The notes under the pieces are model-generated. The model saw only the letters and a program-made list of their open reading frames with translations. It was not told the DNA's origin and ran no database searches. The translations under genes were made by a program, and so were the position numbers. 64,000 nucleotides of DNA from an uncultured Gammaproteobacteria bacterium (GTDB taxonomy: Bacteria; Pseudomonadota; Gammaproteobacteria; SZUA-229): positions 121 through 64,120 of the forward strand of contig CAWKAL010000110.1 in the NCBI GenBank assembly GCA_963847575.1. Reading direction: 5' to 3'. Shown one piece after another: positions 9,116 through 58,200 of the stretch. How positions within the stretch are numbered: position 1 is the first letter of the stretch; each line of letters begins with the position of its first letter.

Positions 9116-10074
9116 CAGTCGATATACATTTCGCTGACTGATTCTTCGTAATGTATACGTCGAATCGTTTCCGCCAGCATGGTCGAAATCGACACCTGGC
9201 GGATACGACTGCAGGTCTTTGCTTCCTCGCTGAGCGGGATGGTGTCGGTCACCACCAGTTCATCGAGCATCGAGTTAGCGATGTTTTCGATCGCATTGCC
9301 CGATAGTACCGGGTGGGTACAATACGCCGAAACACTCGCAGCGCCATGCTATTTTAACGCACTCGCGGCCTTGCACAGGGTGCCGGCGGTATCGACCAGG
9401 TCATCCACCAGCACACAATTCTTGCCTTCGACTTCACCGATAATGTTCATGATCTCGGCTACATTCGCCTTCGGGCGACGTTTGTCGATAATCGCCAGTT
9501 CGGCATCACCGAGGCGTTTTGCCAGCGCTCTCGCCCTGACCACGCCGCCGACATCCGGCGACACTACCAGCAGGTCCTGGAAACCTTTCTGCCAGACATC
9601 GGCCAGCAGGATCGGCGAGGCATAGACATTATCGATCGGTATATCAAAAAATCCCTGGATCTGGTCAGCATGCAGATCGACGGTTAACAGCCGGTTTACT
9701 TTCACACTGGTCAGCATGTTCGCCACCACTTTCGCCGTGATCGGCACCCGCGCCGAACGCGGTTTTCTGTCCTGGCGTGAATAGCCGTAATACGGTATCA
9801 CTGCGGTAATGCGTTTCGCCGAGGCACGCCGCATGGCGTCGATCATCACGATCAGCTCCATCAGGTTGTCGTTGGTCGGCTGGCATGTCGGCTGGATCAG
9901 GAACACATCCCGGCCACGCACGTTTTCCATCACTTCGATGCAAATTTCGCCATCACTGAAGGTCTCGACACTGATTCTGCCCAGCGAGGTATTCAGATGC
10001 GACGCAATCTTCTGCGACAGCTCGGGATTAGCATTACCCGAAAATATTCTCAACCGGCTGTCTTCTTTGGTCAC
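9116..10074 (-). pseudogene. prs: Ribose-phosphate pyrophosphokinase with an in-frame TAG at 9349..9351
   Basis: Prs homology is colinear along the full length (..[48 protein letters not shown]). The same frame continues after the TAG down to a TGA at 9116. The start is probably GTG at 10074 or TTG at 10053. Confidence 0.88.
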
Positions 10075-10100
10075 GTCTGGTCTCGTCTGTGCTTCAAAAA

Positions 10101-10371
10101 TGGCTGGGTCGGGAGGATTTTCTCGCGCCTCCCACATTCACCAGATCACTGCGTAATTACCACTTTGCAATCCGGCACATCTATTCTATATGGCTGGGCC
10201 GGGAGGATGACTCGGGCGCCTGCCCTTCGCCCTGCGGGCCAGCCTTCGGCTGTTCTGATTTGCGCCAGGCAAATCAGTCGAACCTGTCTATTATTCCGGA
10301 GGTTCGAACCCTCCCGCATTACCAGATGTCTTCGTCTCAAACTCTTAGCAATCAGGCACATCTATTCTATA
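10101..10371 (-). repeat. Two degenerate tRNA-Gln-derived units (about 90 and 181 bp), each ending in the tRNA-Gln 3' terminus
   Basis: tggctggg(t/c)cgggaggat recurs at 10101, 10191 and 10372 (the real tRNA). A 35-nt duplication ggcacatctattctatatggctgggccgggaggat is present. The larger unit contains a perfect T-arm-like GGAGGTTCGAACCCTCC and a 9-bp hairpin ctgatttgc-gccag-gcaaatcag. Confidence 0.75.
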
Positions 10372-17417: not shown

Positions 17418-17804
17418 ATGCAAATTTGTCGTGATGTCATCAAAACCCGTGAGCTGCAGTTTTTATCAAAACTGCCGGGCGTCGATGAAGCTGAAAAAGC
17501 GCGCCGCCTGCTCAGCGGTGTGAAAGGCATCGAGGGCGTCAAGCTGATTCGCGTCGGTCACTTAAGCCTGCGTTACGATGTTCGAATGCTGACCCTGCAA
17601 ATGATCGAGTCTGCTTTACGCGACGTCGGCTTCTTTCTCGATAACCGGCTGACGACACGTATCCAGCGCAGCCTGTTTGCCTATTGCGAAGATGCCCAGC
17701 GTGCCAGCCTGGGTGTTGAACATGATCCAGAGCATGTGATCTTTTCCCACCACGATAGCGCCACGCACGATCCCCGCCCGCACAACTGGCGAAACTATAT
17801 TTAA
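17418..17804 (+). CDS. Hypothetical small protein with a possible HMA-like beta-alpha-beta fold lacking a CxxC
   Basis: 128-aa ORF on the same strand upstream of moeB. The segment GVKGIEGVKLIRVGHLSLRYDV..MIESALRDVGF resembles a ferredoxin-like or HMA topology. No family assignment is possible from the sequence alone. Confidence 0.45.
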   Translation: MQICRDVIKTRELQFLSKLPGVDEAEKARRLLSGVKGIEGVKLIRVGHLSLRYDVRMLTLQMIESALRDVGFFLDNRLTTRIQRSLFAYCEDAQRASLGVEHDPEHVIFSHHDSATHDPRPHNWRNYI

Positions 17805-19141: not shown

Positions 19142-20245
19142 TTAGAGCTTTTCACCGTTATCTTCGGGCTGACGATGGAATACACGCGTCATGCCCTTGT
19201 CATCGCGGGTGATGAGCTTGTTATTCTTTACCTTGTAGCGATAGCGAATTTCCTTGTCGTAATCATCCACCGTTGCCACCAGGTCTTTGATGGTGGCCTG
19301 CATTTTACCACTGAGTGTACGCTCCCCGCCGTCACTCCAGTCGAAACGATTATCCTTGATGGTCAGGGTTTCGCCCGACTCGTTTTTCCATACGCCTTCG
19401 AGTGCCTTTTTCACCTGAATGCGGTCGCATAAACCACTCGGACATATACCGCTTTCGGCAAACAATGGATTTGTAATTCGTCGCGGGAATCCGCCTGCTG
19501 AATAACCGGCGGGATAGCCATTCACACCTGCCGGCAGACGCCGACCCCAGCGATTAGTATACGCATAAGGATTTACATTATGGCTGGCATAGCCGGGCTG
19601 CCAGGGACGGGTCGCGAATGGTGACGCGCCCCACGGAGCCCCGGCGTAGGGCGAGCCACCCCAGGGTGAACCACCGTAGGGTGAACCACCCCAGGGTGAA
19701 CCACCCCAGGGCGAACCACCCCAGGGTGAAGCGCCCCACGGAGAACCGCCGTATGGCGCACCCCCCCAGGGAGATCCACCATATCTATTACCGCGGTAAG
19801 GAGAACCGCCCCAGGGAGATCCACCATATCGAGAACCACCATATCGAGAACCGCGGTAGGGTGCACCATAGGGTGCTCCACCCAACTGGCCAGCGTTGTA
19901 TGGCGAACCACCCCACGGTGACCCGGCGTATGGCGAACCACCCCACGGTGAAATACCGGGGCCAGATAACATCCACGGTGAAGCCCCCTGACCACCCCAT
20001 GGACTTGTGCCCCAGGGTGAGCGACTGTAGTTACCCCAGCTGGAATAAGGACTGCCAAAGGATGCAGGGTAACCGCCATAGCCACCAACAGGCACACGAT
20101 CGAGCATACCCATGGCGACCATCATGTTGATCATCATTTCAACAAACGGGATATCGGTAGTGGAACGGTAATATTTGACGGAGGCAAAGGTACTGAAACT
20201 CGTGGTGAGCATCAGCAATGCGACAATAATGCGTCGTCTCTTCAT
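19142..20245 (-). CDS. Secreted protein with a Met-rich segment, about 165 residues of (G)-S/A-P-W/Y-G pentapeptide repeats, and a small beta-rich C-terminal domain
   Basis: Signal peptide MKRRRIIVALLMLTTSFSTFASV, then EMMINMMVAMGM. The repeat block contains 12 SPW and 6 SPY tripeptides by my count, plus APY, APW and SRY variants. No known family recognised. Confidence 0.7.
   Translation of the reverse strand: MKRRRIIVALLMLTTSFSTFASVKYYRSTTDIPFVEMMINMMVAMGMLDRVPVGGYGGYPASFGSPYSSWGNYSRSPWGTSPWGGQGASPWMLSGPGISPWGGSPYAGSPWGGSPYNAGQLGGAPYGAPYRGSRYGGSRYGGSPWGGSPYRGNRYGGSPWGGAPYGGSPWGASPWGGSPWGGSPWGGSPYGGSPWGGSPYAGAPWGASPFATRPWQPGYASHNVNPYAYTNRWGRRLPAGVNGYPAGYSAGGFPRRITNPLFAESGICPSGLCDRIQVKKALEGVWKNESGETLTIKDNRFDWSDGGERTLSGKMQATIKDLVATVDDYDKEIRYRYKVKNNKLITRDDKGMTRVFHRQPEDNGEKL
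19589..20086. repeat. Degenerate 15-nt-period tandem repeats encoding the SPWGG block
   Basis: Runs such as ccaccccagggtgaa occur many times with variants. All three frames on both strands stay open here, which produces spurious ORFs. Confidence 0.8.
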
Positions 20246-20319
20246 GTGGGCAATGTCTGTTCGATATTTATTATTATAGCTCAGGCACGTTCGAACATTT
20301 TGCGTATCCGCCTGAGGAT

Positions 20320-21180
20320 GTGTTACATGATATATTCATTTGCAGTGAAAGCAAAGGCCGGTTGTATACAATTATGTCACCTGACCAGTTTATCTCGACT
20401 GTTACCGGCTGGCCTGGCCGCCAGCTCATCCAGCGATTTCTATATGTTGTTGATCTGACTAGCTTTGGCATGCTGGCCGTACGCGACTGGACGCTTAAAG
20501 CACGCCTCTTCGATTCGCGCAGTTACAGCACCATTGTTTCACAAATTATTTTTACCGGCGTCGACGCCCTGCCCACGATCACTTTCCTCGGCCTGCTCAC
20601 CGGGTTTCTGTTTACTTTTCGACTGATCGGAATTCTCGACTCGGTTGGTGGCGCGAGTGACCTGGTCGATATTCTATCTGCCGTCATCGGTCTCGAAATC
20701 GGCCCTCTGCTGGCCGCTTTTATTCTCATCAGTCGCACCGGCTCAGCCATTGTGGTCGATATCGGCAATATGAAACTGCACGGCGAAATCGAAGGCCTGG
20801 AAAACCTCGGTATAAACATCAATGATTACCTGGTCGCCCCGCGACTGATTGGCGCTGCCATCTCGCAACTCGCGATCACAGTGTATTTCACCTTCATCAC
20901 CCTGGTGTTTGGCATAATTCTCAGCGGGGTGTTCCTGTCTTCAGCGCATTTTGAGTTCCTGACCACGCTGGAGAGCGCATTTGATTTTCAAATCGTCGGC
21001 GCTTTCGTCGTCAAAAACCTGCTGTTCGGCTATATCATTGCCACCACGGCGTGTTATCACGGCCTGTCGGTACACAGTTCGGCGACCGAAGTGCCGCAGC
21101 AAACCCAGCGTGCCATCGTAAATTCACTGGTCATCATTTTTATCGTCGATGGCCTGATGGGCATTGCCCTGCTGACCTGA
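20320..21180 (+). CDS. MlaE/YrbE-family ABC transporter permease
   Basis: Polytopic membrane protein with MlaE-like core motifs (..EIGPLLAAFILISRTGSAIVVDIGNMKL..EIEGLE..G). The real start is possibly MSPDQF at about 20374. Confidence 0.8.
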   Translation: MLHDIFICSESKGRLYTIMSPDQFISTVTGWPGRQLIQRFLYVVDLTSFGMLAVRDWTLKARLFDSRSYSTIVSQIIFTGVDALPTITFLGLLTGFLFTFRLIGILDSVGGASDLVDILSAVIGLEIGPLLAAFILISRTGSAIVVDIGNMKLHGEIEGLENLGININDYLVAPRLIGAAISQLAITVYFTFITLVFGIILSGVFLSSAHFEFLTTLESAFDFQIVGAFVVKNLLFGYIIATTACYHGLSVHSSATEVPQQTQRAIVNSLVIIFIVDGLMGIALLT

Positions 21181-21181
21181 C

Positions 21182-21925
21182 ATGGAAACCGCACTCGACA
21201 TACAGCACTGCATTTCGCAGATACCCCGCGCTGACTACAGCGGCAGCCCGATTTCATTCAGTATCGGTCGCGGTGAAATCGTCAGCATCATCGGCCCGGA
21301 CTATAACGGCAAGTCTGAATGGCTGCGAACTTTCGCCGGACTCATCAGGCCGGCCAGTGGCAAAGTGATCAGCGGTGAAATAAGCACTGACTGTGAAAAT
21401 CGTGCACAGTGGGAGCAATTGAGACGCAAGCTGGCTTTTGTCAGCTCGGAAACAGCATTGTTATCCGCATCCAACGGGCTCGCCAACGTCATACTCGCCG
21501 CCAGCTATCACCAGCTCGGCGATAGTGATGACCTGCGCGACCGGGCCACCGAGCTGATGACCCAGTTGCATGTGCAATTTCAGGCTGACGCCCTGCCGGC
21601 ATTCATGCGTCGTGATCAACGTTACCGGCTGGCGCTAGCGCGTGCACTGATGCTGGAACCCGAAGTTCTAATGCTGGATAATCCATTCGCACACACCGAT
21701 GCCGCCGGCACAGGCAAACTCAAACAGTTTTTGCTCAAGCGCGTCGACGAACATGCGACTGCGCTGGTCATCATGTCGCATGACCTTGAATTCAGCCTCA
21801 AATATGCGCAACAGATTTTATTTGTTACGCGTGAACAGGTATATTGTTTCAAGGGCGCCAGTGAATTTCTCGGCAGCCAGGTTGAAAGCATTCGCCAGTA
21901 CATCGAAAAACCGGGGCTGCATTAA
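21182..21925 (+). CDS. MlaF-like ABC ATPase with degenerate catalytic motifs
   Basis: Walker A GPDYNGKS and H-loop MSHD are present. The Q-loop Gln is absent (AFVSSETALL), the LSGGQ signature is replaced by FMRRDQ, and Walker B reads VLMLDN (Asn in place of the catalytic Glu). Confidence 0.8.
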   Translation: METALDIQHCISQIPRADYSGSPISFSIGRGEIVSIIGPDYNGKSEWLRTFAGLIRPASGKVISGEISTDCENRAQWEQLRRKLAFVSSETALLSASNGLANVILAASYHQLGDSDDLRDRATELMTQLHVQFQADALPAFMRRDQRYRLALARALMLEPEVLMLDNPFAHTDAAGTGKLKQFLLKRVDEHATALVIMSHDLEFSLKYAQQILFVTREQVYCFKGASEFLGSQVESIRQYIEKPGLH

Positions 21926-22836
21926 TGGATCGCCGCAATACGCCACGTACACACTATATCCATCGCCTGAGTTACAGCGCCCAGGAACGGATCGTCGGTG
22001 CCTTCCTCTTGCTCGCTATCGGTATCCTGGTCTGGCTGCTGTTCACCGCAGGCTCATCAAAAATTTCCTTTGAAGACTATTTCACTCTCTATGGTGAGCT
22101 CGAAACCAACCAGGCAGTCAATACCAACACTGAAATTATTGTGTCAGGATTAACTGCCGGCAATGTAGAAGACGTCAGTATCAATGAACACAATAAAATC
22201 ATCGTCACGCTACGCATGCTTGAACGTTATCACTCGCTGATTCGCACTGACACTGTCGCACATATCGAAGCACTCAATTTTGGCGTTATCAACAAGTCGG
22301 TGATTGAATTTAGCGTAGGCAACCCGGCGCTTCCGCTGCTGGCCGACGGCAGTAAAATTAATATAGCGTCGTCGTTCGATGTTAAACAGCTGATGGCAAA
22401 ACTGGCACCTGCACTCGATAACCTGGTCAGTACCATTGAGCAGGCTAACCAGCTGTTAACGGCGATCGATCCCGCCGTGGTGACAGATTCGATTAATAAT
22501 CTCAATGCTATTTCCAGTGACGTGCGCGCAATTACAGCACAGGTAAAATCCGGCGACGGCATTGCCAACCAGGTGATTTATGATAATGCACTGGCAAATA
22601 ACATGAAGGCCATCGCCAGTAACCTGAATCTCGCCACTTCTCAGTTCGACAGACTACTCAGTGTAATCAACAAGGAACTTGAATCAGTTCCCGGACTAAT
22701 GAAAAAAGTCGAACCGCTAATTAAAGAAGCTGACAAAACCATCAAGGCGACACAGCGTATCTGGCCACTTTCCTCTGCGATCGGTGATGACAATAAAACC
22801 GAACGCCTGACACCGCAGGCACCGGCCAATGATTAG
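21925..22836 (+). CDS. MCE/MlaD-domain protein
   Basis: N-terminal TM helix, then an MCE beta-barrel-like segment (YFTLYGELE..VSGLTAGNVEDVSI..IVTLRM), then a long helical tail. Its start overlaps the ATPase stop. Confidence 0.8.
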   Translation: MDRRNTPRTHYIHRLSYSAQERIVGAFLLLAIGILVWLLFTAGSSKISFEDYFTLYGELETNQAVNTNTEIIVSGLTAGNVEDVSINEHNKIIVTLRMLERYHSLIRTDTVAHIEALNFGVINKSVIEFSVGNPALPLLADGSKINIASSFDVKQLMAKLAPALDNLVSTIEQANQLLTAIDPAVVTDSINNLNAISSDVRAITAQVKSGDGIANQVIYDNALANNMKAIASNLNLATSQFDRLLSVINKELESVPGLMKKVEPLIKEADKTIKATQRIWPLSSAIGDDNKTERLTPQAPAND

Positions 22837-23779
22837 CTGCATAAGCCGCCTGATTTCGTGTGCAATCCTCCTGCTGATAGCAGCCTGCACCAGTCAGCCC
22901 ACGGATAAACCGCCGGAACTGCTCGGCGAAGCCAATAGCCTTATCAGCAATGGCGTCGACCAGTACAACCAGGCAAACTATACAAAGGCCACTGTTCTGT
23001 TCGAGCAGGCAATGTATATCTACCGCAGCATCGACAATCCTGACGGCACTGCATCTGCGTACATCAACCTGGCTAAAACTGCGATAACACAGCATGAATT
23101 GACCCGTGCTACTCACTGGCTGACGCAAACCCGGTCGATTGTTGATGCTGAACAACTGACAGCACTGCAAAATCACATCACCATTATCGGCTCAAGCATT
23201 GCGATAGAACAGCATGATTACCCTGCTGCCAAAAACATGCTTGGCAGCCTGCTGGATGCGTCCAGTAAAAATATTGACCCTGAAACGCGACTCGCCGCCG
23301 TGCAAAACCGCACCCGCATTGCATTTGCAGAAAATGATAACGCGCAGGCATGGACAGAACGTTACGCCAGCCTCGCCAGTGACGACCAGCCACACGCACA
23401 GGCACGCCTCGCCCGCTTCCGCGCTGCGCTGAGCACCGACACTGGCGAGCAGGACACGTATTATCAGCACGCCCTGGACATCAACCGAAAACTGGCCTGG
23501 CGCCCCGGCATAGCCGCCACCCTCAGCGAGTGGGCCGAACAGAACATCAATGTGAACAATTACAGCGGCGCACAAAACAAACTCGAACGCGCTTTACTGA
23601 TCCGCCTCGACCTGCGTGACAATCACAACACCGCACAGGTGCTGAGCATGCTCGAATACACCTACGAACATCGGCAAGAACCCAAAAAGCAACAACGCGC
23701 AGCCTACTGGAAGCAACAGGTCGCGAATGCCGATTTTTATGACTGGGATAACGTAATGAAAGACTTCGAGAGTTTTTAA
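22829..23779 (+). CDS. Lipoprotein with TPR-like helical repeats, last gene of the MCE operon
   Basis: Lipobox LLIAAC. It overlaps the MCE gene by 8 nt. Helical repeats (..YNQANYTKATVLFEQAMYIY..) are present. Confidence 0.6.
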   Translation: MISCISRLISCAILLLIAACTSQPTDKPPELLGEANSLISNGVDQYNQANYTKATVLFEQAMYIYRSIDNPDGTASAYINLAKTAITQHELTRATHWLTQTRSIVDAEQLTALQNHITIIGSSIAIEQHDYPAAKNMLGSLLDASSKNIDPETRLAAVQNRTRIAFAENDNAQAWTERYASLASDDQPHAQARLARFRAALSTDTGEQDTYYQHALDINRKLAWRPGIAATLSEWAEQNINVNNYSGAQNKLERALLIRLDLRDNHNTAQVLSMLEYTYEHRQEPKKQQRAAYWKQQVANADFYDWDNVMKDFESF

Positions 23780-24439: not shown

Positions 24440-24461
24440 AATATAATTTTAATCTTTTAAT

Positions 24462-25881
24462 TTATTTCGTATCAGCTGCGTTGACCTGGCCCGGGTTGGC
24501 TTTGCCTTTCGACGCTTTTAGCACCTGGCCGACGAAGAAGCCCATCAGCTTGTCTTTGCCGCCCTTGAGTTCGGCAAACTGTTCCGGGTTGTTGGCGATG
24601 ACTTCATCCACCATGGCTTCGATGGCGCCGCTGTCGGTGATCTGTTTCAGGCCGCGGCTTTCGATGACGGCATCTGCGCTGCCTTCACCGTTCCACATGG
24701 CGTCGAATACTTCTTTGGCGATCTTGCCGGATATCGTGTTGTCCTTGATGCGCGTGAGCAAACCGGCGAAGGCTTCAGCATCGACTTTCGACTGGCTGAT
24801 GCCGAGTTCTTCCTTGTTCAGGCGCGCGGACATTTCACCACTGATCCAGTTGGCGGACAGTTTTGCATCGGCGGATTTTTCGGCCACGGTTTCAAAGTAA
24901 TCCGCCAGTTCGCGTGATGCTGTTAGTACCGCCGCATCATAGGCTGACAGGCCGAACGCATCTATGTAACGCTGTTTTTTCTGTTCCGGCAGTTCCGGCA
25001 GCTCGGCGCGCACTGTTCGAGATAGTCTTCGGTCACTACCACCGGCAGCAAATCCGGGTCCGGGAAATAGCGATAATCGTTGGCCTCTTCCTTGCTGCGC
25101 ATGGAACGGGTTTCATCACGATCAGAATCGTACAGCCGGGTTTCCTGCACTATGCTGCCACCGTCTTCGATGAGGTCGATCTGGCGTTCGATTTCGTGGT
25201 TGATTGCACGTTCGACAAAACGGAACGAGTTGATGTTTTTGATTTCCGCGCGGGTACCGAACTCTTCCTGGCCCACCGGCCGCACTGAGACATTGGCATC
25301 ACAACGGAACGAACCTTCCTGCATGTTGCCATCACAGATATCGAGGTAGGTCACCAGCGCGTGCATTTTTTTCATGTAGGCCACGGCTTCTGCGGCTGAA
25401 CGCATGTCGGGCTCGGACACCACTTCGAGCAACGGCGTGCCGGCGCGATTCAGGTCGATCCCGGTCATGCCGGCATAATCTTCGTGCAGCGATTTACCGG
25501 CATCTTCTTCGAGATGCGCGCGGGTCACGCCAATGCGCTTGGTGTCGCCATTTTCGAGTTCGATATCGATATGCCCCATGCCCACGATCGGCAGTTCAAC
25601 TGGCTGATCTGGTAACCCTTGGGCAAATCCGGATAAAAATAATTCTTGCGCGCGAACACCGAGCGCGGCGCAACTTTCGCGTCAATCGCCAGACCGAACT
25701 TGACCGCCATGCGCACCGCTTCCTTGTTTAACACCGGCAACACACCCGGCAGCGCGATATCGACCGCGCAGGCCTGGGTATTGGGCTCGGCACCATAGGC
25801 GGTACTCGCCGCCGAAAATATTTTCGACTTCGTCGCCAGCTGCACGTGTATTTCAAGACCGATAACTGCTTCGTAATTCAT
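24462..25881 (-). pseudogene. gatB: Asp/Glu-tRNA amidotransferase subunit B, frame broken twice (near 25013 and 25596)
   Basis: Three overlapping ORFs (25525..25881, 24962..25585, 24462..25013) are colinear with a complete GatB. Adding one G at each junction (TTGAACTG to TTGGAACTG; CAGTGCGC to CAGGTGCGC) restores ..[15 protein letters not shown].. and ..[14 protein letters not shown].. Confidence 0.9.
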
Positions 25882-36143: not shown

Positions 36144-38096
36144 TCAGCTGCTTCTGCGCTGGTACATCATCAGGCCAACGCCTGTGAGCAATACCAGCAA
36201 CTGCAGGCCCAGGCTTTGCGCGGTGGGATATACGCCGAGCATTTCGATGCGTGGGAAATTCATCAGGCTGGTGCTGACTATGCCGGCTTCCTGCAAGGCA
36301 GCAATCCCCTGACCGGTGAAAATGACCGCGAGCAGGAACAGCAGCACCGCATTAATCTGGAAAAACTGGCGGATTGGCAGCCTGATGCCAAGGCGATACA
36401 CCAGCAGAGACAGCACCACCAGCAGCACGATCGCCGCACCGATGCCCATCAGGAAACTTTGTTCGGAACCCTCGTCCACCTGCACCCACATCGCCTGGTA
36501 GAACAGCACGGTTTCAAACATTTCGCGGTACACCGCGATAAACGACACCAGCGCCAGTACCCACAGCGTGCTGCCTTCCATCGCGCTCGATACTTTGTGC
36601 TGCACGAACTGCTGCCAGCGCTTGCTGTGGCTGGCATTGTGCAACCAGAAACCAACGTAGATCAGGATCAATGCCGCGACCAGTGCGGCCGCGCCCTCGG
36701 TGACTTCGCGACTGGCACCGCTGATGCTGATAATATTTTCCGCCACCCACCAGGTGAATATGCCAAGTACAATCGCGCCAATCCAGCCAATGTGAATATA
36801 TTTCATCGCATCGCGACGACCGGTCTTGATCAGTGCCGCCATGATCGCGGCCAGCACCAGGATGGCTTCCACGCCTTCGCGCAGCAAAATAATAAATGCA
36901 CCGGTAAACGCGGCTTCGCCAGACATGCTGCCACTGCCCAGCAAACGCTTGGCATCGATCAACAGCGCCACGGCTTCAATACGCTTTTGTTCCAGCGCGT
37001 CGATATTTGAACTGCGCGAGAGCTCGCGAAATTCAAGCATGGCCTGTTCGATTTTGAGTTTGAGCGCTTTATCCAGGACTAACACGCTCGGCTCTGCCAG
37101 CTCGAAACCATCAAGGTAGGCTGACAGTGCGGTTTTATGTGCATTGACTGCATCACCGGCGCGGGCAAATTCAACGCTTTCTGCGAGCTTTGCAATACTG
37201 GTATCCAGCGCAGCATGATCACTCACCTGCAACACTTCAGGTGTATCGCGAAGATAGGTCAGCACCGCCTCGCCGTCTTTGTCTGACAGGCCAGCGAGCA
37301 ATGCCAGCTCACCTGCTTGGGCATACGAGGTCGAAGTGATATCTGCGATCGTCATGAACTTGTCGTGCAGATGCCCCTGCCGCCAGAGCAGCTCACCGTT
37401 CTGGCTTTGCACCGTGCTACCTGAAAAACGGCTCACCATGAATGCCAGCGCCCAGCGTTGTTCATCAGCCAGATGCGCGAACGATGCCATCGGGGTGCCG
37501 GGCACGCCCAGGCTGATAGTGTTATAGAGATCGAATACGCTGCGTGAGTACTGTCGCGCGCTATCATGGAAATTACTCGGCGCCGGCGACATTCCCGCGG
37601 CCAGCTCACCATCGCCATAGCCCTGCGCGCCGTGACAACTCGCACAACTGGAGTCGTACAGGCTGCTCACCTGGTCCATCGCCGGTAGATGTGCAGGCGC
37701 CACCACCAGGTCATAACTGCTGATCAGGGCCAGCTTGAGCTGTGCGGTCAAACGCGCGACCTCGCCGCCGTCCACGCGGCGCTCAACCGAAGAGCTGATG
37801 CGCTCAGCAGCCTGCTGAAGCTCGGCTTTGTTCGCCACCGGCGGCAGGGTCTTGAGCAGGTTCAGAATTTCCCCTGAAAACTCCTGCATCTCGGCATACT
37901 CGACGCCATCGATCACCCGCCCCTCGCTGACCGTTGGCGCATAGTCCACACCCACGTAATCCAGCATTTGCAACAGGCGCTGCGACGAATCCGCAGCGGC
38001 CATAGTATCGGCATAGGCACTGAATGAAGATAAATAAGTAGCAAATACAAAAACTTGTAGAATTCTGGCTGTCATGGTCGGGAACCGTTTAAACAC
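36144..38096 (-). CDS. Fusion protein: periplasmic cytochrome c domain plus FTR1/EfeU-type iron permease
   Basis: Signal peptide, one CxxCH (CASCHG), then a C-terminal 7-TM FTR1 module with two REXXE-type motifs (REGVEA, YREMFET). Confidence 0.8.
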   Translation of the reverse strand: MFKRFPTMTARILQVFVFATYLSSFSAYADTMAAADSSQRLLQMLDYVGVDYAPTVSEGRVIDGVEYAEMQEFSGEILNLLKTLPPVANKAELQQAAERISSSVERRVDGGEVARLTAQLKLALISSYDLVVAPAHLPAMDQVSSLYDSSCASCHGAQGYGDGELAAGMSPAPSNFHDSARQYSRSVFDLYNTISLGVPGTPMASFAHLADEQRWALAFMVSRFSGSTVQSQNGELLWRQGHLHDKFMTIADITSTSYAQAGELALLAGLSDKDGEAVLTYLRDTPEVLQVSDHAALDTSIAKLAESVEFARAGDAVNAHKTALSAYLDGFELAEPSVLVLDKALKLKIEQAMLEFRELSRSSNIDALEQKRIEAVALLIDAKRLLGSGSMSGEAAFTGAFIILLREGVEAILVLAAIMAALIKTGRRDAMKYIHIGWIGAIVLGIFTWWVAENIISISGASREVTEGAAALVAALILIYVGFWLHNASHSKRWQQFVQHKVSSAMEGSTLWVLALVSFIAVYREMFETVLFYQAMWVQVDEGSEQSFLMGIGAAIVLLVVLSLLVYRLGIRLPIRQFFQINAVLLFLLAVIFTGQGIAALQEAGIVSTSLMNFPRIEMLGVYPTAQSLGLQLLVLLTGVGLMMYQRRSS

Positions 38097-50098: not shown

Positions 50099-53000
50099 CT
50101 AAATCTTGCCAACCAGGTTAATAAAGAAGCCCTGTGAATCATAATCAAGATCCGTCAGGTCATCCGAGAAATCGGTGAAGTTGTAACCCACGCCGAATTT
50201 CAGGTTCTTGCCGACATGGCGGTAGATACCAAACAGGGTACCGCTGCGCTGATCCTGCGCGTCGGGCAGATCGAGCAGGCGGGCTTCCATCAACACATCC
50301 CACTTGTAGGTAAAGTGCCAGTCGGCACGCAGGATATACAGGCTGGCACGGCTGTCAAAGAACTCCGGGTTGACACGGTCCTGGCTGACCTGGCCGAGAC
50401 GATAGGCATATTTACCGCCAAGACTCCAGCGGGTTGTTAAATCATAAATCGTATCCAGCGACAGTATATGGCTCTTTTGCAGGAATTCGACCGAGGTGTT
50501 CTGCGTGGTGACCTGTTCCGCGGTGGGGACGTTGAAGAAATAGGTGTACTTGAATAATGAATTCCAGCGATCATTCAGGATCGGGCGATAACCATAACCC
50601 AGCACTGCCTCGGTGAATTTACCATCGAAGAATTCCCCCTGTGAACTCTTGCTGTCGGAATGATTCAGCTTGCCGATAAAACGCCAGGCCGGATCGAGCT
50701 GGTACTTGACACTGTTTTTCACCAGCCAGGTTTTACGATTATTGGTGCCGCCGATGGTGTTGTCGGTATCATCGGTGCGGTATTCAAGTGCACCCGAATA
50801 CTGCACAGCTTCATAGGTGTAGGAAGTTTTCAAACCCAGTGCACGGCGCTCGGTATCAGCACCGGTGTTGTCATCTGTCAGTGAGCCGGCTTCGAGTGAT
50901 GCACCGTAGGTCCAGCGATCATTCGGTGCCAGGTCAACACCCAGTGCGTGGGTCAGGCCGGTGGGTACATCACCGTGCGCATAACGTTCTTCTGCGTACA
51001 CGCTGACGCTATCACTGTAACGCGAGCGCACACCGGTGTTCATGTTACCGCGACGTGAACTCACGCCATTATCGGTGCGCTCGTTTTCCAGTGCATAATT
51101 AAGATAAACACTGCTGCGGTCTGATACCAGGTAATCTGTCCCCAGTTTTGCACCGGTGCCGGTCTGGCCGAATGACAGTTCACCATCGAGCTTGAGGTTT
51201 TCGGTGGCACGGATACTGCCACCGCCACCGACGCGATTATTTTCTTCACGATTACCGGTGGTGTTTGCTGTCACCTGGGTGAAACCGTAGGCGGTCCAGT
51301 CTTCTTTGGAATCAAACGCAGCTTCAAATGCCACATCGAAACGGTTACCGGTTTTTTGCGTAGCGGCGATCACCGCTGAATTATCTTCGCGGGTATCGAG
51401 TCGGCCACCTGTGCTCAGGCGCCAGTTTTCATCCAGCAGGTATTCAACATCAGCATCCACTGCCGAGGTGTTGAGTGAATTTTCCTGGTCGCGACTGTCG
51501 GCCTTGACGTTCAGGTTCATGTCTTCGCTCAGCGCCATGTTCAACTTACCGCCGAACTGTTCGGTTTCATTGGCAGTGAGCTGTCCGGGCGCGGAGAACC
51601 CGGCTTCACGATTCTGCGTGTACACGCTGGCGGTACCGCGTGAATTGTCCACCAGGTCTTCGAGCCGGGTGCTGGCCTCGATACGGTAGGCATCGGCCTT
51701 GGTGTTCGGATCCAGGTCCTGATCGAGCTGGTTAAAATTGAAACCACCGTCGTTCGAGTTCAGCGCGCCAGTGCCGTCGCCCTTGCTGCTGGCGATTTCT
51801 GCTTTCAGCCAGGTACCGGCGTTCTTACGCAGGGTCAGGTCGATGCCGTTTAAAGTGTTTTCATTATCGGCTTCATCCTGCTTGCTGGCGGTAATGCCCA
51901 GTTTTACATTATCGTTAAACCAGACATGGGCACGGCCACCGACAGCAACATCATTAATATCGGCGAAGCCCGGGGTGTATTCATAACGCGCAACCAGGAA
52001 CGCCGGGTTGCCGCTGAGTGAACCGTTATCCACCAGCAGGTCATCATTGGCCGTGGATGACAGGGGCTCACTCAGGATCACCCGGCCCTGGATATAATCA
52101 ATATCGTAATCAATCGCGGGCGTGAGGTTTTTCACGCCGATCACAATACCCGAATCCTTGTCACGCACTTCGATACGCAAACGTTCAGACCCGATCAACA
52201 GGTCCTGGTGACGCAGGAAGTAGAGCGAACCACCGGTGCCGCGGAATTCATCACGACCGGCAATGGTGCCCGGCTCGGCGGCGAAGCCATCAACCATGAT
52301 TGATTTTTCGCCGAACTCGGTAGCGCCCATGCTTTCATAATGGCCGTTGGCACCGTAGAGCCCGCGATCGATATGCGCGAGATCGGTATCGGTGTAGGCA
52401 ATCTTGAAATTACCCCACAGGCCAAAGCTGTCGTGCTGGCGTAACTTGACGTAGAACTTGCCCGAGGTCGGTGCGTTTTCGACCACGGTGGAATCATCGC
52501 CGAAGGTCGGATAAGCAAGGTCAGGATCAATTCGACGGAACAGTGACTGCGGATCTTTTTCGATGAAGTTGGTAAACAGTTCGTCGAACGGGCCTTCGAG
52601 AGTGTCGGCACTGGTGGTCAGTTCCCAGTCATCACCGAACTGGCCGTTGGCGTAAAACGCCAGTCGACCATCGACATTCAAATCATTGTCGTAATGCGTT
52701 TTATCACCCGTGACCAGTTGCGCCGGACCGTTGGTGCTGTCTTTCGCAATCGTGAGATCCGCAATGCCCACGTAGAACCAGTCACTCTTGTCAAACTGCA
52801 GCTCGCGCATGTACAGGTCACCGTTGCCCGCGGGATCGAGCACCGCAACTTCTACGGTGTGGAAACCTTTGGGGAAAATTTCTTCAGCGACAAAGGTATG
52901 TTCCGCACTAACCGGCATGCGACGCCCGGCCAGCCATACACTGAATCCCTCGGGTATATTGCTGCCGTTGACCAGCACGGTGCCACCCGCCAGTGGAATA

Positions 53001-55246
53001 TTTTGCATGCCGAGGTGGTTTTCACCATAGCCCACTAGCTGTTCGACGGCCGTGACATCCTCGTCAAACGCTGCCAGCGCATCTTCTTCGACACTGTCGA
53101 CCAGCCATAACGGCAGCGCCGTGGTTTCATCGAAGTTGCCCTTGTCATCATAAACCCGCAGCACATACTTGAGCTTGATCACCGGTGCGGTGAATTTTTC
53201 TATGTCAGCAGACCAGTGCGCGCGGTTATTTTCATCGACCGGTACGATGTTCATGGGTTCATCGCGGGTCGATTGTTCGTCTTCGAAGATGCGCACTTCT
53301 GCATGATGGATAAAACTCGGGTAATTACTGTAGACCTGGAAGCTGACCGCGTTTTCCGCCAGCTCAGTTTCAGTGTCATCCCGGTAACGCACCGTGTTCG
53401 GCCAGGCGGTAACATTCAGTCGTGGACGCATTTCAAGATTATCGAAACGGAACTGGATGTCGGCTTTTTCCAGTGCAACATCGGTACAGCGTTGCAGGTC
53501 AGCAATATTTTTATACGGATCATATTCCGGCACGCCATCGATGGTGATACGCATCAGGTTGAGTGCAAACGGGTTGTGCGCAGTGGCTTCGCGGTCGATG
53601 CGGGTGATATCGAGGCCTTCGTTTTCTTCCAGCACTGCAAGTTCGTCGTACAGCACCTGCACTTCGACGCGCGAGGTATCAAACTGTTTGAAGCCGGTGT
53701 TGGCCACATCTTTCGAATGCACATAACCGAGGCCTTCATATTCGACCTGCTTGTCGTCCAGGCCGAGTTCCTGTTTCACCATCTCCATGGCGCGACGCGC
53801 GCGTGAGGTTGAAAGACCGATATCATCGCCGTATACCATCGATGTACGACGATCCATGCGCTCGTTATTGGTATACCCGGTAAAGCCAAGACGTACATTG
53901 GACTTGTCAGAAATTTCATCCATGAGTTTTTTCAGGCGACTGGTGTAACCTTCCGGCAACATCGGCTTGCCTTCTTTATAACGTATCGCGCGGATCGGGC
54001 CCGAGGGCGGATCGTACGCCAGGGTGATGGTTTCGGCGACATCAGCATCTGGGCAAGCCTGCGGCTCGGCAGTGAATTCCTGAAATGGATCGTCGTGCCA
54101 GAACTCGACTTCAACACGCGTATTCAGTGCGCGGCCTTTCTCGGTATCATTCGAAGCCACCGGGAACGCCGAACCTTTGCCGGTCGAGCTCACCGCGTTG
54201 TTCTCCAGACCCATCGCATCCTGGATGCCGAGCGCGACACGGCGTCCACGCGCTTTCGACAAACCGGTGTGGTCACGATAAATACGTTCAGCACCGTCGG
54301 TCAACGGCAGGTTATCGGTATGGCCGACGAAGTGCACGACAACATTGTTCTTGTCACGCAGGTTGCCCAGCACCTCGCTAATCTGGCGAATAAATTCAGC
54401 AGGAATTTCGGTCTGGCCTACTTCGAGCCGTAGCGGCGACACCAGATTTTTCAGCCGCGCGCGTTTTGCATTGCCGGCGCGGTATTGCAGTTTACACACC
54501 GTTTCATTGCGGCAGACCTTGACACGGTTGAGACCGACAGCCGCGATCACAACTTCTTTATCAACCGCAGTCTCGGTGATTTCGTCGTACCACACCTGTA
54601 CTTCCACACGACGGTTCCTGCGCTTACCTTCTACCGTATCGTTGCTGGCTATCGGCTGGCTCTCGCCGGCACCGTCATAGCTGACGGACTCGGGTTCGAG
54701 ATCGAGTGCGCGCTGGAAAAATTCTGCGGTGATTTCTGCGCGGGCACGCGACAGGCCAATATTGTCACCGTATTTTGCTGTCAGCCCCGGGCCAAGCTTG
54801 TCAGTATCACTGTGGCCAATAAAGTGCACCCGTACATTGGCGCGGTGCTTCATGCCATTGAGCACTTCGCGTAATTGCGTTACCGCGGATTCGGGAATAT
54901 CGGCTTCACCTGAACGGAAACCAATCGGCGGCACTGCATTTTCGAGTTTGAAAGTATCAGCTTTCTTGTCGAGCACTTTCTGCATCTCGACACGGTCTTC
55001 CTCGCGCGGCCTGAAGAAAGTTTCATCCTGTATCCAGAGATTGAATACTTCATCCGGTGGCAACTGCTGTTCGGTGTTCTCGCCCAGCGGGTGCGACTGC
55101 AACTGTAATGCAGGCGACGCAGTAGTGCCTTCAGGCGCATCGTCAAAACCAAGCTCGGCATAGAGCGGCCCTGCCAGCGCACTCAGCAGCGTGCCGAACA
55201 ACAGGGTGTGCAGATATTTGTGCATCGCTCTAGTCATCGAAGCCAC
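50099..55246 (-). CDS. Giant outer-membrane protein: signal peptide, three OmpA-C-like domains, a central beta-rich region, and a C-terminal ~550-aa beta-barrel-like region
   Basis: Three OmpA-like modules are present: HFIGHSDTD..GLSRARAE..NRRVEVQV; HFVGHTDNL..GLSKARGRRVA..NTRVEVEF; GFTGYTNNE..GLSTSRARRA..TSRVEVQV. The C-terminal third shows alternating aromatic/polar strands and ends ..GFFINLVGKI. Candidate starts at 55246, 55237 and 55225 all lie within 17 nt of the upstream gene's stop. Confidence 0.75.
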   Translation of the reverse strand: MASMTRAMHKYLHTLLFGTLLSALAGPLYAELGFDDAPEGTTASPALQLQSHPLGENTEQQLPPDEVFNLWIQDETFFRPREEDRVEMQKVLDKKADTFKLENAVPPIGFRSGEADIPESAVTQLREVLNGMKHRANVRVHFIGHSDTDKLGPGLTAKYGDNIGLSRARAEITAEFFQRALDLEPESVSYDGAGESQPIASNDTVEGKRRNRRVEVQVWYDEITETAVDKEVVIAAVGLNRVKVCRNETVCKLQYRAGNAKRARLKNLVSPLRLEVGQTEIPAEFIRQISEVLGNLRDKNNVVVHFVGHTDNLPLTDGAERIYRDHTGLSKARGRRVALGIQDAMGLENNAVSSTGKGSAFPVASNDTEKGRALNTRVEVEFWHDDPFQEFTAEPQACPDADVAETITLAYDPPSGPIRAIRYKEGKPMLPEGYTSRLKKLMDEISDKSNVRLGFTGYTNNERMDRRTSMVYGDDIGLSTSRARRAMEMVKQELGLDDKQVEYEGLGYVHSKDVANTGFKQFDTSRVEVQVLYDELAVLEENEGLDITRIDREATAHNPFALNLMRITIDGVPEYDPYKNIADLQRCTDVALEKADIQFRFDNLEMRPRLNVTAWPNTVRYRDDTETELAENAVSFQVYSNYPSFIHHAEVRIFEDEQSTRDEPMNIVPVDENNRAHWSADIEKFTAPVIKLKYVLRVYDDKGNFDETTALPLWLVDSVEEDALAAFDEDVTAVEQLVGYGENHLGMQNIPLAGGTVLVNGSNIPEGFSVWLAGRRMPVSAEHTFVAEEIFPKGFHTVEVAVLDPAGNGDLYMRELQFDKSDWFYVGIADLTIAKDSTNGPAQLVTGDKTHYDNDLNVDGRLAFYANGQFGDDWELTTSADTLEGPFDELFTNFIEKDPQSLFRRIDPDLAYPTFGDDSTVVENAPTSGKFYVKLRQHDSFGLWGNFKIAYTDTDLAHIDRGLYGANGHYESMGATEFGEKSIMVDGFAAEPGTIAGRDEFRGTGGSLYFLRHQDLLIGSERLRIEVRDKDSGIVIGVKNLTPAIDYDIDYIQGRVILSEPLSSTANDDLLVDNGSLSGNPAFLVARYEYTPGFADINDVAVGGRAHVWFNDNVKLGITASKQDEADNENTLNGIDLTLRKNAGTWLKAEIASSKGDGTGALNSNDGGFNFNQLDQDLDPNTKADAYRIEASTRLEDLVDNSRGTASVYTQNREAGFSAPGQLTANETEQFGGKLNMALSEDMNLNVKADSRDQENSLNTSAVDADVEYLLDENWRLSTGGRLDTREDNSAVIAATQKTGNRFDVAFEAAFDSKEDWTAYGFTQVTANTTGNREENNRVGGGGSIRATENLKLDGELSFGQTGTGAKLGTDYLVSDRSSVYLNYALENERTDNGVSSRRGNMNTGVRSRYSDSVSVYAEERYAHGDVPTGLTHALGVDLAPNDRWTYGASLEAGSLTDDNTGADTERRALGLKTSYTYEAVQYSGALEYRTDDTDNTIGGTNNRKTWLVKNSVKYQLDPAWRFIGKLNHSDSKSSQGEFFDGKFTEAVLGYGYRPILNDRWNSLFKYTYFFNVPTAEQVTTQNTSVEFLQKSHILSLDTIYDLTTRWSLGGKYAYRLGQVSQDRVNPEFFDSRASLYILRADWHFTYKWDVLMEARLLDLPDAQDQRSGTLFGIYRHVGKNLKFGVGYNFTDFSDDLTDLDYDSQGFFINLVGKI

Positions 55247-58200
55247 CCTTCGTCGCCGGCTTGCCGCGACGCCAGAATACTTCGGTTTCGATTTCGAGGC
55301 GGTAACAACAATCCAGGCCTTCCCAGCGACGTTCGACTTCGTCTTTCACACTTTGCAGGCGATCTTCCACCAGCGAAGGCTCTTCAACATCTGCCAGGTA
55401 GGACAGGCGCAATACTGATGGCGCTTCGATTAATTTTTCCAGCAGCAGGCCAACACGCGACAGCCACTGGGTACGCATCTCGGTGGTGCCGGGCTCGAAC
55501 ACGGCATCGGCCATGTCGAGACGTACCACGCGATGGATAGTGGCACCGAAGTTATACTTCAGCATCTTGCCGCGGGTAGCGCGCTGTACTCGCGGATTTT
55601 CTGTGGTCATGCGATAACCGCTCGGCAGACTGCGTTCATCGAGCTTGATAATAAAGTTCGAACCGCGATCTTCATTCGGCACCACCGCACAGGTGATATG
55701 GAAGCGGCCGAATTCATCGGTCTTGGCTTCGATACCGCGCGCAGTGACCACGCGTGAACTCGGTATTCCCTCTTCACCTTCATCCTGGTAACCGTTCAGG
55801 TTCTTGTCATCGAACACCTTGCCGATGATGTCGGAACAGTCGAAGGTCGGGTCGGGCACGACGCGCACCGTGGCACTCGCCTGCTCTGAGGCGGCTTCGC
55901 CATTGCGGTTATTAATGACCTGCGCAAGGTTGATGTATTCACCTTCACCAACACCGGAACCGACCACCAGCAGCAGCTTGATGGTTCTGACTTCAGATGA
56001 ATTCAGTGTCAGGTTCGGCCAGGTCAGCATCAGGCCGTTGATTGTCGGTTCGGTCGGCACACCGTCGATACGCGCCGAGCCGGCCACGTACTTGAAGCCC
56101 GCCGGGAAGTTATCGACGATATCGAGATCCTGCAATGGCGCTGCCAGCGTATTGTTCAGCGTAATGGTGTACGGGATCAGCTGGCTACGGGTGACATTGA
56201 GCAGCGCCGAAGTTTTCGAAATCGCGATTGCAGCATCCAGCTCCGGATCGATCGGGATATGGTTGTTGTATATCTGGCTGGTGAACGGGCTCGCGCTATT
56301 GCCCAGGGTGTATTGCAGGTAATAATTCGTGCCCGTCGTGCGCGGTGCGATCGAAGTTGCCGGCGCCTGTTCAGAGACCTGGATTTCGCAACGATCCGGT
56401 ACCGTGCTGAGCTGGTCATCTGCACTGCCGGGACAGGTCGGTACGCTGAACGGTGGATCCGTCAGCGCCAGTGCCGGCGGAATTATCACCGAGGTGGTAC
56501 CAACATAGCCCGTGGCCGGTGGCGTAACTTCAATGACATACGCGTCGCCGACATCACAGTTACCGGCCACGCTGAAGTTCATGTCGAACTTGTAATAACC
56601 GTCTGCCAGTGTCACCTGGTTTTGTTGCGCGGGATCATTGAAGCAGCTCACCGGCACCGGCAGGCTGCCGTTGCTTGCATTCAACATAGTGAGCGTAACG
56701 CCTTCGACCGGGGTGCGCAGTATCGAATTGTAAACCACGCCGTTAGGATCAATCGGCAGGTTGAGGTTGAAGGTATTGCTACCGGCGCCAACGCTGATGC
56801 TGCTGATCAGTTGCAGGCCGTCGCTAAACGGCACGGCAGAACTCGCGGAGTCGGCCACACCCAGTAAGGCACTGCCGCCGCCTGCGCCCGGCGCGATAAA
56901 GCGCAGTTCGTATTCACCGCCTGCGATACTGCTCGGGGTCAGACCGATAATGCGGTACTGGCCGTTGGCGTCGGTGAACACGTTATCGAGCAACTGGGTG
57001 TTGAGATAAATTTCTACACTCCAGTTTTCCAGCAGGCGTTCATTGCTGTCGAGCACGTTATCAAAATTGGCATCGTGCCACGCGGTGCCGTTGAGCACGG
57101 CGATACCCGGTGCCGAACCGATATCTACATTGGCCGAGTCGGATGCGTTCTGTGCGCCCGCGTTCCAGCTAACATTGGCGGTGTTGTCGATCATGGTGCC
57201 GTCGGCGAGAGACGCATTCACATCAACTACAAAATTCAACGTGACCGAAACACCCGCTTCGAGTACGCCATAGGTGGTACCGAAATCGGCCGTAACCACG
57301 CCAGCGAGTTCGCTGACACCGTTGACAGAACCGTTCATGCGACCTGAACCGTTCACATAACTTATTTGTCCGGCCACCGGCAGGTTGAGATCGTCGGTGA
57401 TCAGCAGGTTGGTCACGTCGACGCTGCCGACGTTCTCAGCGCGGATAATATATTCGAGCTGGCCCCCGGCACGCGCGACACCGCCACCGACCACCTGCAC
57501 TTCCTTGGTGATGACGACCTGTTGTGCATTACCAATCGCGATCACGGTGGGCTGGTCGCCGTTCTCGTCGTTACCGTCGGCGTCGGATAACTCGTCGGGT
57601 AATTCGTTCGATGCCAGTGTTGCCTGGTTCGTCACTAACTGGCCGGCCGCACCCGTGACTGTTACATCGAAGGTCACCAGCGCTGACCGACCCGGGTTCA
57701 TCTGGCCGTTACCGGGTGTCGGTAATGGCAAGTCAGACGAACTGATATCGATGCCGGCGATCAGCGGAGATGTGCCGGGCACCGTATCGGTGATCGCATT
57801 ACCATTGATGGTGACACTGTCTGCAATATAGCTTGAATTGGCCGGCACGTTATCGCTGAGGATAACGCTGGTGCCAGGTATCGCGCCGGCATTGCTGATG
57901 TTGAATGTGTAACGCAGGGTATCGCCGGTATCAACCACGCCATCAAGCAATACATCGTTCAGCAGGGTCACGGTTTTCTGCACATCGAGTATCGGCAGGT
58001 TGCCAATCACGTCCTGCGTCGGGTCACCGAAGATATCGGTGGACGGATCATCCGACTGCTGTGTCGGGAACGGACCGCTGCCAACACCTTCGCCGGTGAC
58101 AAAGCCCTGGTTGGAAATAATCGTGCCGTTAACGATGTCAGTAGCCACTACTACATCAAATGTAATGGTGGCGACATTGGTCGTGGTGCCACTAGCATCG

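Follow-up and report, generated by a model that had tools for sequence, protein, structure and literature searches.

We analyzed a 64,000-nucleotide (nt) stretch of contig CAWKAL010000110.1 from an uncultured gammaproteobacterium (hereafter, the window) and found that the gene at 19142..20245 on its minus strand (hereafter, the target) belongs to an undescribed protein family. Members of this family, which is found mainly in uncultured Gammaproteobacteria, consist of a signal peptide, a methionine (Met) helix, an uncharged linker, and a lipocalin-like barrel. In the lineage represented by the window, a linker motif has been amplified by tandem duplication in steps of 15 and 45 nt to give about 30 S-P-W/Y-G-G units. 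The target combines known kinds of protein, namely exported low-complexity repeat proteins and lipocalin-like domains. What is new is the unannotated family itself, its design of Met helix, aromatic linker, and mini-barrel, and the unusually regular repeat expansion in the window lineage. With modest confidence, we favor the explanation that the protein is a disordered, multivalent aromatic tether that joins two conserved binding modules in the periplasm.

An unannotated family with two conserved modules

A first database search with the target returned 11 matches, including an orthologue at 93% identity and a partial relative at 56%. Full-length relatives at 26 to 30% identity had in common a leader, a near-invariant Met segment (K-x-Y-x-Y-x(3)-[IL]-P-[FM]-V-[EQ]-M-[MS]-[LI]-N-M-M-V-A-M-G-[MLIV]-L-x-x-[VI]-P), and a C-terminal domain of ~90 residues. 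Between the Met segment and this domain lay a stretch of similar composition that could hardly be aligned. Using a profile of the C-terminal domain (A2), we searched 1.84 billion proteins, which were cluster representatives at 50% identity, and obtained 408 matches at E ≤ 1e-3, of which 95 reached E ≤ 1e-10. A leader together with a 14-residue stretch containing at least 3 Met was present in 100 of 158 retrieved proteins, and many of the other 58 were fragments that began within the linker or the barrel. Relatives were encoded at six loci in species-representative genomes and at 28 loci in metagenomes.

The author of a first-pass annotation of this DNA knew of no characterized bacterial family with such a periodicity, and the database searches bear this out. 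No family member that was scanned had a Pfam match at threshold, the target had no significant match in NCBIfam, and a sequence search of the PDB with the barrel profile gave spurious hits only (a designed trefoil knot and Rhs repeats). In the source databases and in a cluster look-up, the only name on offer was "hypothetical protein." A second large protein search, made with a 101-sequence alignment of the family, was swamped by low-complexity words; it produced only 17 matches and brought no names. The target had no tblastn match in a plasmid collection, and a literature search for SPWGG-type strings yielded no more than T-cell receptor sequences and unrelated peptides of eukaryotes. The same annotation had advised profiling the C-terminal domain separately; this attached no named family, but it revealed that the protein is not unique, being related to at least 408 clusters at 50% identity. 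For this family of hundreds of clusters with a conserved three-part design, there is no name, no relative of solved structure, and no model in Pfam or NCBIfam, and describing it would clear a block of "hypothetical proteins" in environmental Gammaproteobacteria.

The target is an ATG-initiated open reading frame (ORF) of 367 amino acids (aa) plus stop, a complete coding sequence whose orthologues at loci L001 and L022 are 92 to 93% identical. Its parts, all read from the minus strand, begin with a putative Sec-type signal peptide at aa 1 to 21 (20183..20245), which we read by eye as MKRRR, then IIVALLMLTTSF, then STFA|SV. This leader lacks a lipobox Cys and resembles a Sec/SPase I signal; other family members have equivalent n-h-c leaders that end in A-x-A, and a full-length AlphaFold2 model placed a helix at residues 2 to 14. 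From its sequence, the protein would be exported and is not a lipoprotein, with a mature form of 346 aa.

The first conserved module occupies aa 23 to 52 (VKYYRSTTDIPFVEMMINMMVAMGMLDRVP; 20090..20179), as judged by conservation across 101 members. Within it lies a Pro-capped, Met-lined helix at aa 33 to 49 (20099..20149), delimited by a column logo and by AlphaFold2, which modeled residues 33 to 44 as helix at a predicted local distance difference test (pLDDT) score of ~80. The Met-rich stretch EMMINMMVAMGM begins at aa 36, and at least 90% of the 101 aligned sequences retain M38, M41, and M42. Across 86 members, the helix logo reads P-[FM]-[VI]-[EQ]-M-M-L-N-M-M-x-A-M-G-[IV]-[LI]-[DE]-[RK]-[VI]-P. 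The Met spacing of i, i+1, i+4, i+5, and i+8 (M-M-x-x-M-M-x-x-M) puts five Met on one helical face, while the opposite face is acidic or polar. The 1462 residues of the helix segments are 32% Met and include 141 Asp or Glu versus 30 Lys or Arg, with 2 His and 0 Cys. The polar face is thus acidic, unlike that of cationic, membrane-binding amphipathic helices, which argues against simple membrane binding.

The second module is preceded by a Cys pair, CPSGLC (CxxxxC), at aa 268 to 273 (19427..19444), which probably forms a small disulfide loop. The pair is conserved in the closer sub-family (CMSGVC, CVGGSC, CITDFC, and CVTRSC) and is absent from distant members and from a divergent group that we call sub-clade B. 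Residues 274 to 360 (19166..19426) were modeled as one helix and eight beta-strands forming a lipocalin-like barrel, with a mean pLDDT of 86.6 when modeled alone and ~97 in the full-length model. The motif LEGVW stands at aa 282, and G284, W286, and G313 are invariant in the 101-sequence alignment; none of the conserved positions in the barrel is a Met, His, or Cys. Thus far, the signal peptide, Met-rich stretch, Cys pair, and beta-rich C terminus described in the first-pass annotation were all recovered from the ORF list, the sequence, and the AlphaFold2 model.

From its modeled fold and the structural and profile matches given below, the barrel is best regarded as a remote, small-scale relative of lipocalin-like domains. 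Its eight antiparallel strands follow a helix, and its invariant G284 and W286 form the G-x-W of the first strand, features that it shares with the lipocalin-like barrels of Lipocalin_4 (PF13648) and DUF5640 (PF18692). In a Foldseek comparison with the PDB, the best matches were small calycin-type barrels with template modeling scores of 0.5 to 0.6, none of them at E ≤ 1e-3; they included the BT domain of methylcrotonyl-CoA carboxylase, potempin E (8ehd), BACUNI_01346 (4qrl), Atu4866 (2jmb), avidins, and fatty acid-binding proteins. The family profile also matched the multi-domain proteins P0081, P0082, and P0108, whose repeated modules are Pfam DUF5640/Lipocalin_4. The link to these Pfam families is transitive through the three proteins, however, since no Pfam model matched the target directly at threshold: scans of the whole protein and of the barrel gave only sub-threshold DUF6287 and Avidin, at the G-x-W strand. 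Moreover, no relative of the Lipocalin_4/DUF5640 type has the Met helix or the aromatic linker, and the target barrel is about half the size of true lipocalins. With only ~75 residues in its sheet, a ligand-holding calyx is doubtful.

Members of sub-clade B (L010-L012, L032, L033, L035-L038, L042, L046, and L047) are 600 to 860 aa long and carry a low-complexity C-terminal extension past the barrel. This extension contains two conserved islands, DP(N/Y)TYLYSY(L/M)KD and NIWKPN..FPDRR.

The linker and its repeat arrays

Between the two modules of the target, aa 53 to 267 (19445..20089) form a low-complexity linker, recognized by motif counts, periodicity, and a pLDDT of 40 to 50. The S-P-W/Y-G-G array lies at aa 60 to 225 (19571..20068). 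A script counted 12 SPW, 6 SPY, 3 APY, 1 APW, 2 SRY, 1 NRY, 1 SPF, and 1 RPW, exactly reproducing the counts of the first-pass annotation. In residues 130 to 215, the spacing from one aromatic to the next equals 5 over 17 successive steps. Chance expectations came from 10,000 composition-preserving shuffles of residues 60 to 225. There were 22 pairs of aromatics at lag 5 in the array compared with 5.5 ± 1.9 in the shuffles (maximum, 14), and 26 [SAN][PR][WYF] motifs compared with 1.7 ± 1.3 (maximum, 7). The segment is 27% Gly, 16% Pro, 16% Ser, and 19% Trp, Tyr, or Phe, and it contains no Asp or Glu. At the DNA level, the earlier description of a degenerate 15-nt tandem array was supported by Tandem Repeats Finder, which reported a 15-nt period at 19648-19780, with 77% matches over 8.9 copies, together with a super-period of 45 nt at 19741-19854; the most regular DNA repeats span 19648..19854.

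The array is predicted to be disordered rather than a folded repeat domain. In the full-length AlphaFold2 model, which was built from 101 aligned sequences, aa 61 to 265 had a pLDDT of 40 to 50 and lacked secondary structure. Two known repeat families were considered and rejected. Pentapeptide repeats of PF00805 have an A(D/N)LXX consensus and fold into a right-handed quadrilateral beta-helix. The array has the same period of 5, but its consensus is S-P-W/Y-G-G, Pfam gave no match, and the model showed no strands at a pLDDT of 40 to 46. The Pfam SPW repeat, PF03779, is built of pairs of transmembrane helices with the SPW buried (PMC8078820). It did not match at E ≤ 10 and has only the tripeptide S-P-W in common with the target, whose array, with its high Gly and Pro content, has no predicted or hydrophobic helices.

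Across the family, it is the linker's composition and motif valence that are preserved, rather than its sequence. Measured from helix to barrel, it has a median of 96 residues in 153 members and a median composition of 12.8% Gly, 13.1% Pro, 11.1% Ser, 6.7% Asn, 4.1% Trp, 4.9% Tyr, 2.5% Phe, and 2.8% Met. Family linkers are poor in aliphatics and in charges (median Asp plus Glu, 4.5%; Lys plus Arg, 5.7%). The corresponding segment of the target is 231 residues long, contains a single Met (0.4%), and shows the strongest periodicity of all (lag-5 fraction, 0.57). We then shuffled each of 150 family linkers, leaving out the window lineage and one distant member, P0010. SPW occurred 180 times versus 12.2 expected (z = 47, a value inflated by the relatedness of the sequences), and NPW, NPY, and SPY were enriched 9-, 6-, and 3.8-fold, respectively. 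In some lineages, Met takes the place of the aromatic at [S/N]-P-[W/Y]. The enrichment of SPW and NPW outside the window lineage indicates that the array of the target is a tandem amplification of a short motif found throughout the family. The first-pass annotation had named unconserved noise as a reading that would sink its interpretation of the repeat; the [S/N]-P-[W/Y] motif proved to be family-wide, whereas only the window lineage (the 93% and 56% relatives) and P0010 carry the SPWGG array in its regular form.

Copy number also varies among near-identical alleles, as the earlier annotation had suggested checking. The proteins of the window, L001, and L022 are 367, 378, and 383 aa long, respectively, and their flanking genes are 95 to 100% identical. 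What distinguishes the three proteins is a set of indels of 10, 1, and 5 aa, all of them in-frame and inside the array. These differences amount to the gain or loss of whole units, although repeat counts taken from short-read assemblies can be wrong. A comparison of the window allele with that of L001 gave 21 synonymous and 16 non-synonymous codon differences.

Other lineages carry different arrays at the linker position. These are (PGYT)n in L046, (SPYS)n in L037, (MNTG)n and (SPYSM)n in L034, 16-residue W-rich units in L032, L035, L036, and L038, and Asn/Gln repeats in L040. In P0002, SPWGG alternates with SPMGG; P0098 has MPMTG repeats and 23% Met in its linker, and the linker of P0157 is likewise strongly Met-rich. 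Sequence comparison thus marks the linker as especially prone to repeat expansion, with arrays that appear to have arisen independently in other lineages. The result is a natural series in which a disordered linker has been re-expanded as SPWGG, PGYT, SPYS, MNTG, and W-rich 16-mers. That such different arrays occupy one linker argues for selection on the composition and valence of the disordered region and not on its sequence; the traits under selection appear to be the length of the linker, its composition, and the number of motifs. Separately, P0011, a 479-aa protein encoded on a 1.34-Mb contig, has six tandem GSPWG-G units at its C-terminal end. It has no barrel, and its alignment to the family is limited to the repeat (12% query coverage), which means that an SPWGG-type pentapeptide array also occurs outside the family.

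Proposed role and competing explanations

Under the explanation that we favor, the array would be a flexible, elastomer-like "sticker-and-spacer" chain, with evenly spaced Trp and Tyr residues as stickers and turn-forming Pro-Gly-Gly-Ser as the spacers between them. We read it as elastomer-like because there are one Pro and two Gly per five residues, because the Trp and Tyr are evenly spaced, and because acidic residues are lacking. Such a chain could provide a long, weakly self-associating, multivalent hydrophobic tether between the Met helix and the barrel. The Met face would offer a flexible hydrophobic surface able to pack on aromatic side chains or on a partner, and the barrel would serve as a compact interaction domain that is too small for a lipocalin-type cavity. 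Together, helix, tether, and barrel might bridge, cover, or cross-link some component of the cell envelope. Taken alone, the sticker-and-spacer mechanism is a more tentative proposal, and we consider it less likely than not.

The likeness to elastomeric proteins can be put in numbers. An index of 2P+G of ~0.6 or more was reportedly proposed by Rauscher et al. in 2006 as an elastomer criterion. For aa 60 to 225, this index is 0.60, and by arithmetic it would be 0.8 in a perfect unit; the segment adds lag-5 aromatics and, in the model, a pLDDT of 40 to 50. Elastin (VPGVG), flagelliform silk (GPGGX), abductin (FGGMG), resilin, and prion-like domains resemble the target in their even aromatics and in being rich in Pro and Gly. 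Elastomeric and sticker-and-spacer proteins share with it a period of five residues, a unit with one Pro and two Gly, and predicted disorder. However, they are eukaryotic extracellular or cytoplasmic materials whose unit sequence is unlike that of the target.

Several points weigh against the tether. Disorder is a prediction, and AlphaFold2 would give similarly low scores to a regular beta-spiral or polyproline-II assembly. The linker shuffle test treats related sequences as independent, which inflates the z-scores, although the direction of enrichment is still clear. Copy-number differences between alleles could partly be assembly artifacts, and gatB is frameshifted in the window. Export is inferred from the leader, and across the contexts examined, no conserved gene neighbor of the target points to a process.

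One alternative, which we regard as unlikely, is that the protein is a periplasmic buffer or chaperone for soft metals, i.e., Cu(I) or Ag(I). Here, thioethers of the Met helix and of the linkers of other members would bind the metal, with Trp contributing cation-pi contacts as in CusF. Met-only motifs such as MxxM and MxM are known to bind Cu(I) in Ctr1, CopA, and PcoA. The Met positions are the most conserved residues of the family, the linkers of several members are strongly Met-rich (P0098 and P0157), and W and M interchange at the repeat position of P0002. The CueO insert, SilE/PcoE, and CusF are, like the target, periplasmic, with Met clustered on a helix and Trp paired with Met, and the helix resembles the Met-rich insert of CueO. 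There is also a precedent in SilE, which is described as a disordered, Met/His-rich silver sponge of the periplasm (PMC5008109). The target itself fits poorly with a CusF-, SilE-, or PcoE-type binder, and we rejected it as a member of that class. Its helix belongs to a set of segments with almost no His and no Cys, and His motifs are lacking; its linker is nearly free of Met. The CusF site for Cu(I) is made of Met, His, and Trp, whereas the barrel of the target conserves neither Met nor His, nor any Cys. Finally, cop, cus, sil, and pco genes were not seen in ~35 contexts, leaving no metal-resistance setting, and the plasmid collection held no match.

A related idea would take the tether further. 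The linker could self-associate through Met-aromatic and aromatic-aromatic contacts, or the barrel could bind [S/N]-P-W, so that the protein would build an envelope gel or condensate whose repeat number is tuned by slippage. The chances of such a periplasmic scaffold are slim. If it were true, the scaffold would represent a new class, a material of the Gram-negative periplasm dedicated to phase separation or elasticity. More broadly, a linker that acts as a periplasmic gel, coat, or spring, or a Met face that binds Cu(I), would amount to a new envelope mechanism; otherwise, the target is an unremarkable exported protein that evolves fast and has undergone a repeat expansion.

It is more doubtful still that the protein coats or scaffolds a periplasmic hydrophobic inclusion such as stored sulfur, by analogy with the Sgp envelope proteins of sulfur globules. 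SgpA-D of Allochromatium vinosum are Sec-exported, repetitive structural proteins of the globule envelope with regularly placed prolines (PMC10386293). The target likewise has a Sec-like leader by sequence, a structural, repetitive character, and a Pro at every fifth residue of its array. In addition, one related genome is labeled Thiotrichaceae, and a rhodanese gene lies near one homologue. On the other side, the Sgps are only 11 to 13 kDa, and their published description mentions no globular domain; they lack the Met helix and the barrel and show no detected sequence similarity to the target, whose mature form of 346 aa has two conserved modules. No similarity to any named family was detected in Pfam or NCBIfam, which may hold no Sgp model, and no sulfur-oxidation gene was found among the window proteins scanned.

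We give even less credence to a sacrificial oxidant sink, in which exposed Met, Trp, and Tyr would scavenge reactive oxygen, chlorine, or sulfur species in the periplasm. A system of this type, the Met-rich peptide MrpX working with MsrP, is said to have been described by Melnyk et al. in mBio in 2015. By this analogy, the enrichment of the most oxidizable side chains (19% Trp, Tyr, or Phe in aa 60 to 225 and up to 23% Met in other linkers) would make sense, and the predicted disorder would expose them. Yet a simple sink needs neither a conserved barrel nor a precisely conserved helix, and genes for msrP, msrQ, or stress regulators were not seen in any examined context.

Gene order and the reading frame

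The target is divergently transcribed from an operon encoding MlaE, an ABC ATPase, MlaD, and a TPR lipoprotein (20374..23779, plus strand; Pfam MlaE, ABC_tran, MlaD, and TPR), which serves here as context only. The gap is 75 bp if mlaE begins at the GTG of its longest ORF (20320) and 128 bp if it begins at the ATG at 20374; orthologues use the start equivalent to ATG 20374. On the convergent side of the target lie genes for a JAB-domain protein, ThiF/MoeB, a conserved 128-aa protein, PrmC, PrfA, and HemA. We compared this arrangement across the 6 genome loci, the 28 loci from metagenomes, and the contigs that carry individual homologues. A recurring block emerged, gatCAB - cyaY - [variable] - target - JAB - thiF - (128-aa gene) - prmC - prfA - hemA, whose housekeeping proteins are 70 to 88% identical.

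The mla operon is adjacent to the target in 13 of ~32 related loci (the window, L001, L006, L022-L030, and L040). Only an 86-aa remnant of mlaE is left in two (L002 and L003), and mla is absent, with cyaY upstream, in 14 (L004, L005, L009-L012, L033, L035-L038, L042, L046, and L047). In one of these, L005, rhodanese and RRM genes lie between cyaY and the target. In L008 and L013, the target is located elsewhere in the genome. Around five distant members the neighbors are unrelated and include an arsenate-reductase-like phosphatase with ProS, an ABC2 transporter with a restriction enzyme, TauE, and MetH with SerS. The first-pass annotation had asked whether homologues always neighbor MCE operons, and they do not: mla is absent from at least 16 related loci and from the five distant contexts. 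The divergent MCE/Mla operon and its short gap of 75 to 128 bp are real. They do not establish a functional link, since the adjacency sits in a conserved gene order. Because the whole gatCAB-hemA block is syntenic, the adjacency is best attributed to shared ancestry; it is moderately persistent but is not a property of the family.

For these reasons, we consider it highly improbable that the target assists the adjacent MlaE/MlaF/MlaD (MCE) lipid transporter, as an accessory or in handling its substrate, with both under common control from the divergent promoter region. In favor of such a role, the adjacency has been kept in the 13 loci even though MlaF is only 37 to 44% and MlaE 59 to 67% identical, and a palindrome, ATATCATGATAT, is conserved in the common intergenic region. 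Beyond the loci without mla, a Pfam scan at E ≤ 10 returned DUF6287 only, with no MlaA, MlaB, MlaC, or MCE-domain match, and we rejected the target as a known type of Mla/MCE accessory. The palindrome, too, points elsewhere. In the window, the divergent intergenic region (20246..20373) contains a TATAAT box ~31 nt upstream of the target ATG and, at 20322..20337, the imperfect palindrome GAATATATCATGTAAC, the counterpart of the perfect form in other Mla-adjacent loci. The palindrome is kept in Mla-adjacent loci and missing from L009, which is without mla but retains the promoter-like block of the target. This absence points to mlaE as the owner, and on sequence grounds we tentatively assign the element to mlaE, for which it may be an operator or promoter element.

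The JAB-ThiF pair was also considered as a functional partner and rejected. It lies downstream at all 22 conserved loci with downstream sequence, yet it is absent around distant members. Since the housekeeping neighbors are 70 to 88% identical and the pair is missing around those members, its adjacency is explained by conserved gene order.

Comparative sequence data indicate that the target is a genuine gene, because its N and C termini are conserved in 10 relatives from the first search; the preservation of both termini in homologues also fixes its frame. A promoter and terminator scan of the gene gave nothing convincing, with a weak promoter signal, and Rfam and tRNA scans of the whole window detected two tRNAs only, neither near the target. 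A chance open frame across a stop-free, microsatellite-like array could be argued from the two further frames that cross it (170 and 174 aa in the ORF listing, mechanical shadows of the stop-free repeat), from the lack of a clear Shine-Dalgarno sequence upstream of the ATG, and from frameshifts elsewhere in the window assembly, but this reading is effectively refuted by non-repetitive termini that are kept down to ~25% overall identity in hundreds of clusters, by the fact that every indel between alleles is in-frame, and by a C terminus modeled at a pLDDT of ~97, and the conserved barrel effectively excludes an artifact of repeat annotation.

Other features of these loci were recorded alongside the target. 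In sub-clade B as sampled at L004, L010-L012, L033, L035-L038, L042, L046, and L047, the cyaY-adjacent loci share two elements ~10 to 90 nt upstream of the ATG, neither of which is present in the window. One is a promoter-like TTGATT-N17-TA(G/C)AAT, and the other, in the 5' untranslated region just before the start codon, is a 6-bp hairpin (CUUGGU-loop-ACCAAG) with compensatory changes at two pairs. The 128-aa ORF between prmC and thiF (17418..17804, plus strand) had no match in a Pfam scan; at the same position, it is 47 to 51% identical in L004, L010, L011, and L049 and 96% identical in L001 and L022.

In the window, gatB (24449..25881, minus strand) is split over frames -2, -1, and -3 in tblastn compared with an intact orthologue of 477 aa in L001, with 94% nucleotide identity and 3 gaps. 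The prs ORF (9349..10137, minus strand) is 262 aa versus 340 aa in L001. These two genes reflect either indel errors in the window assembly or pseudogenes. Farther from the target, 36144..38096 (minus strand) encodes a cytochrome c fused to an FTR1 iron permease. Two very large adjoining ORFs at 50099..58523 (minus strand), one of 1715 aa with an OmpA domain and one of 1097 aa with DUF11/SdrD-B repeats, likely encode cell-surface proteins.

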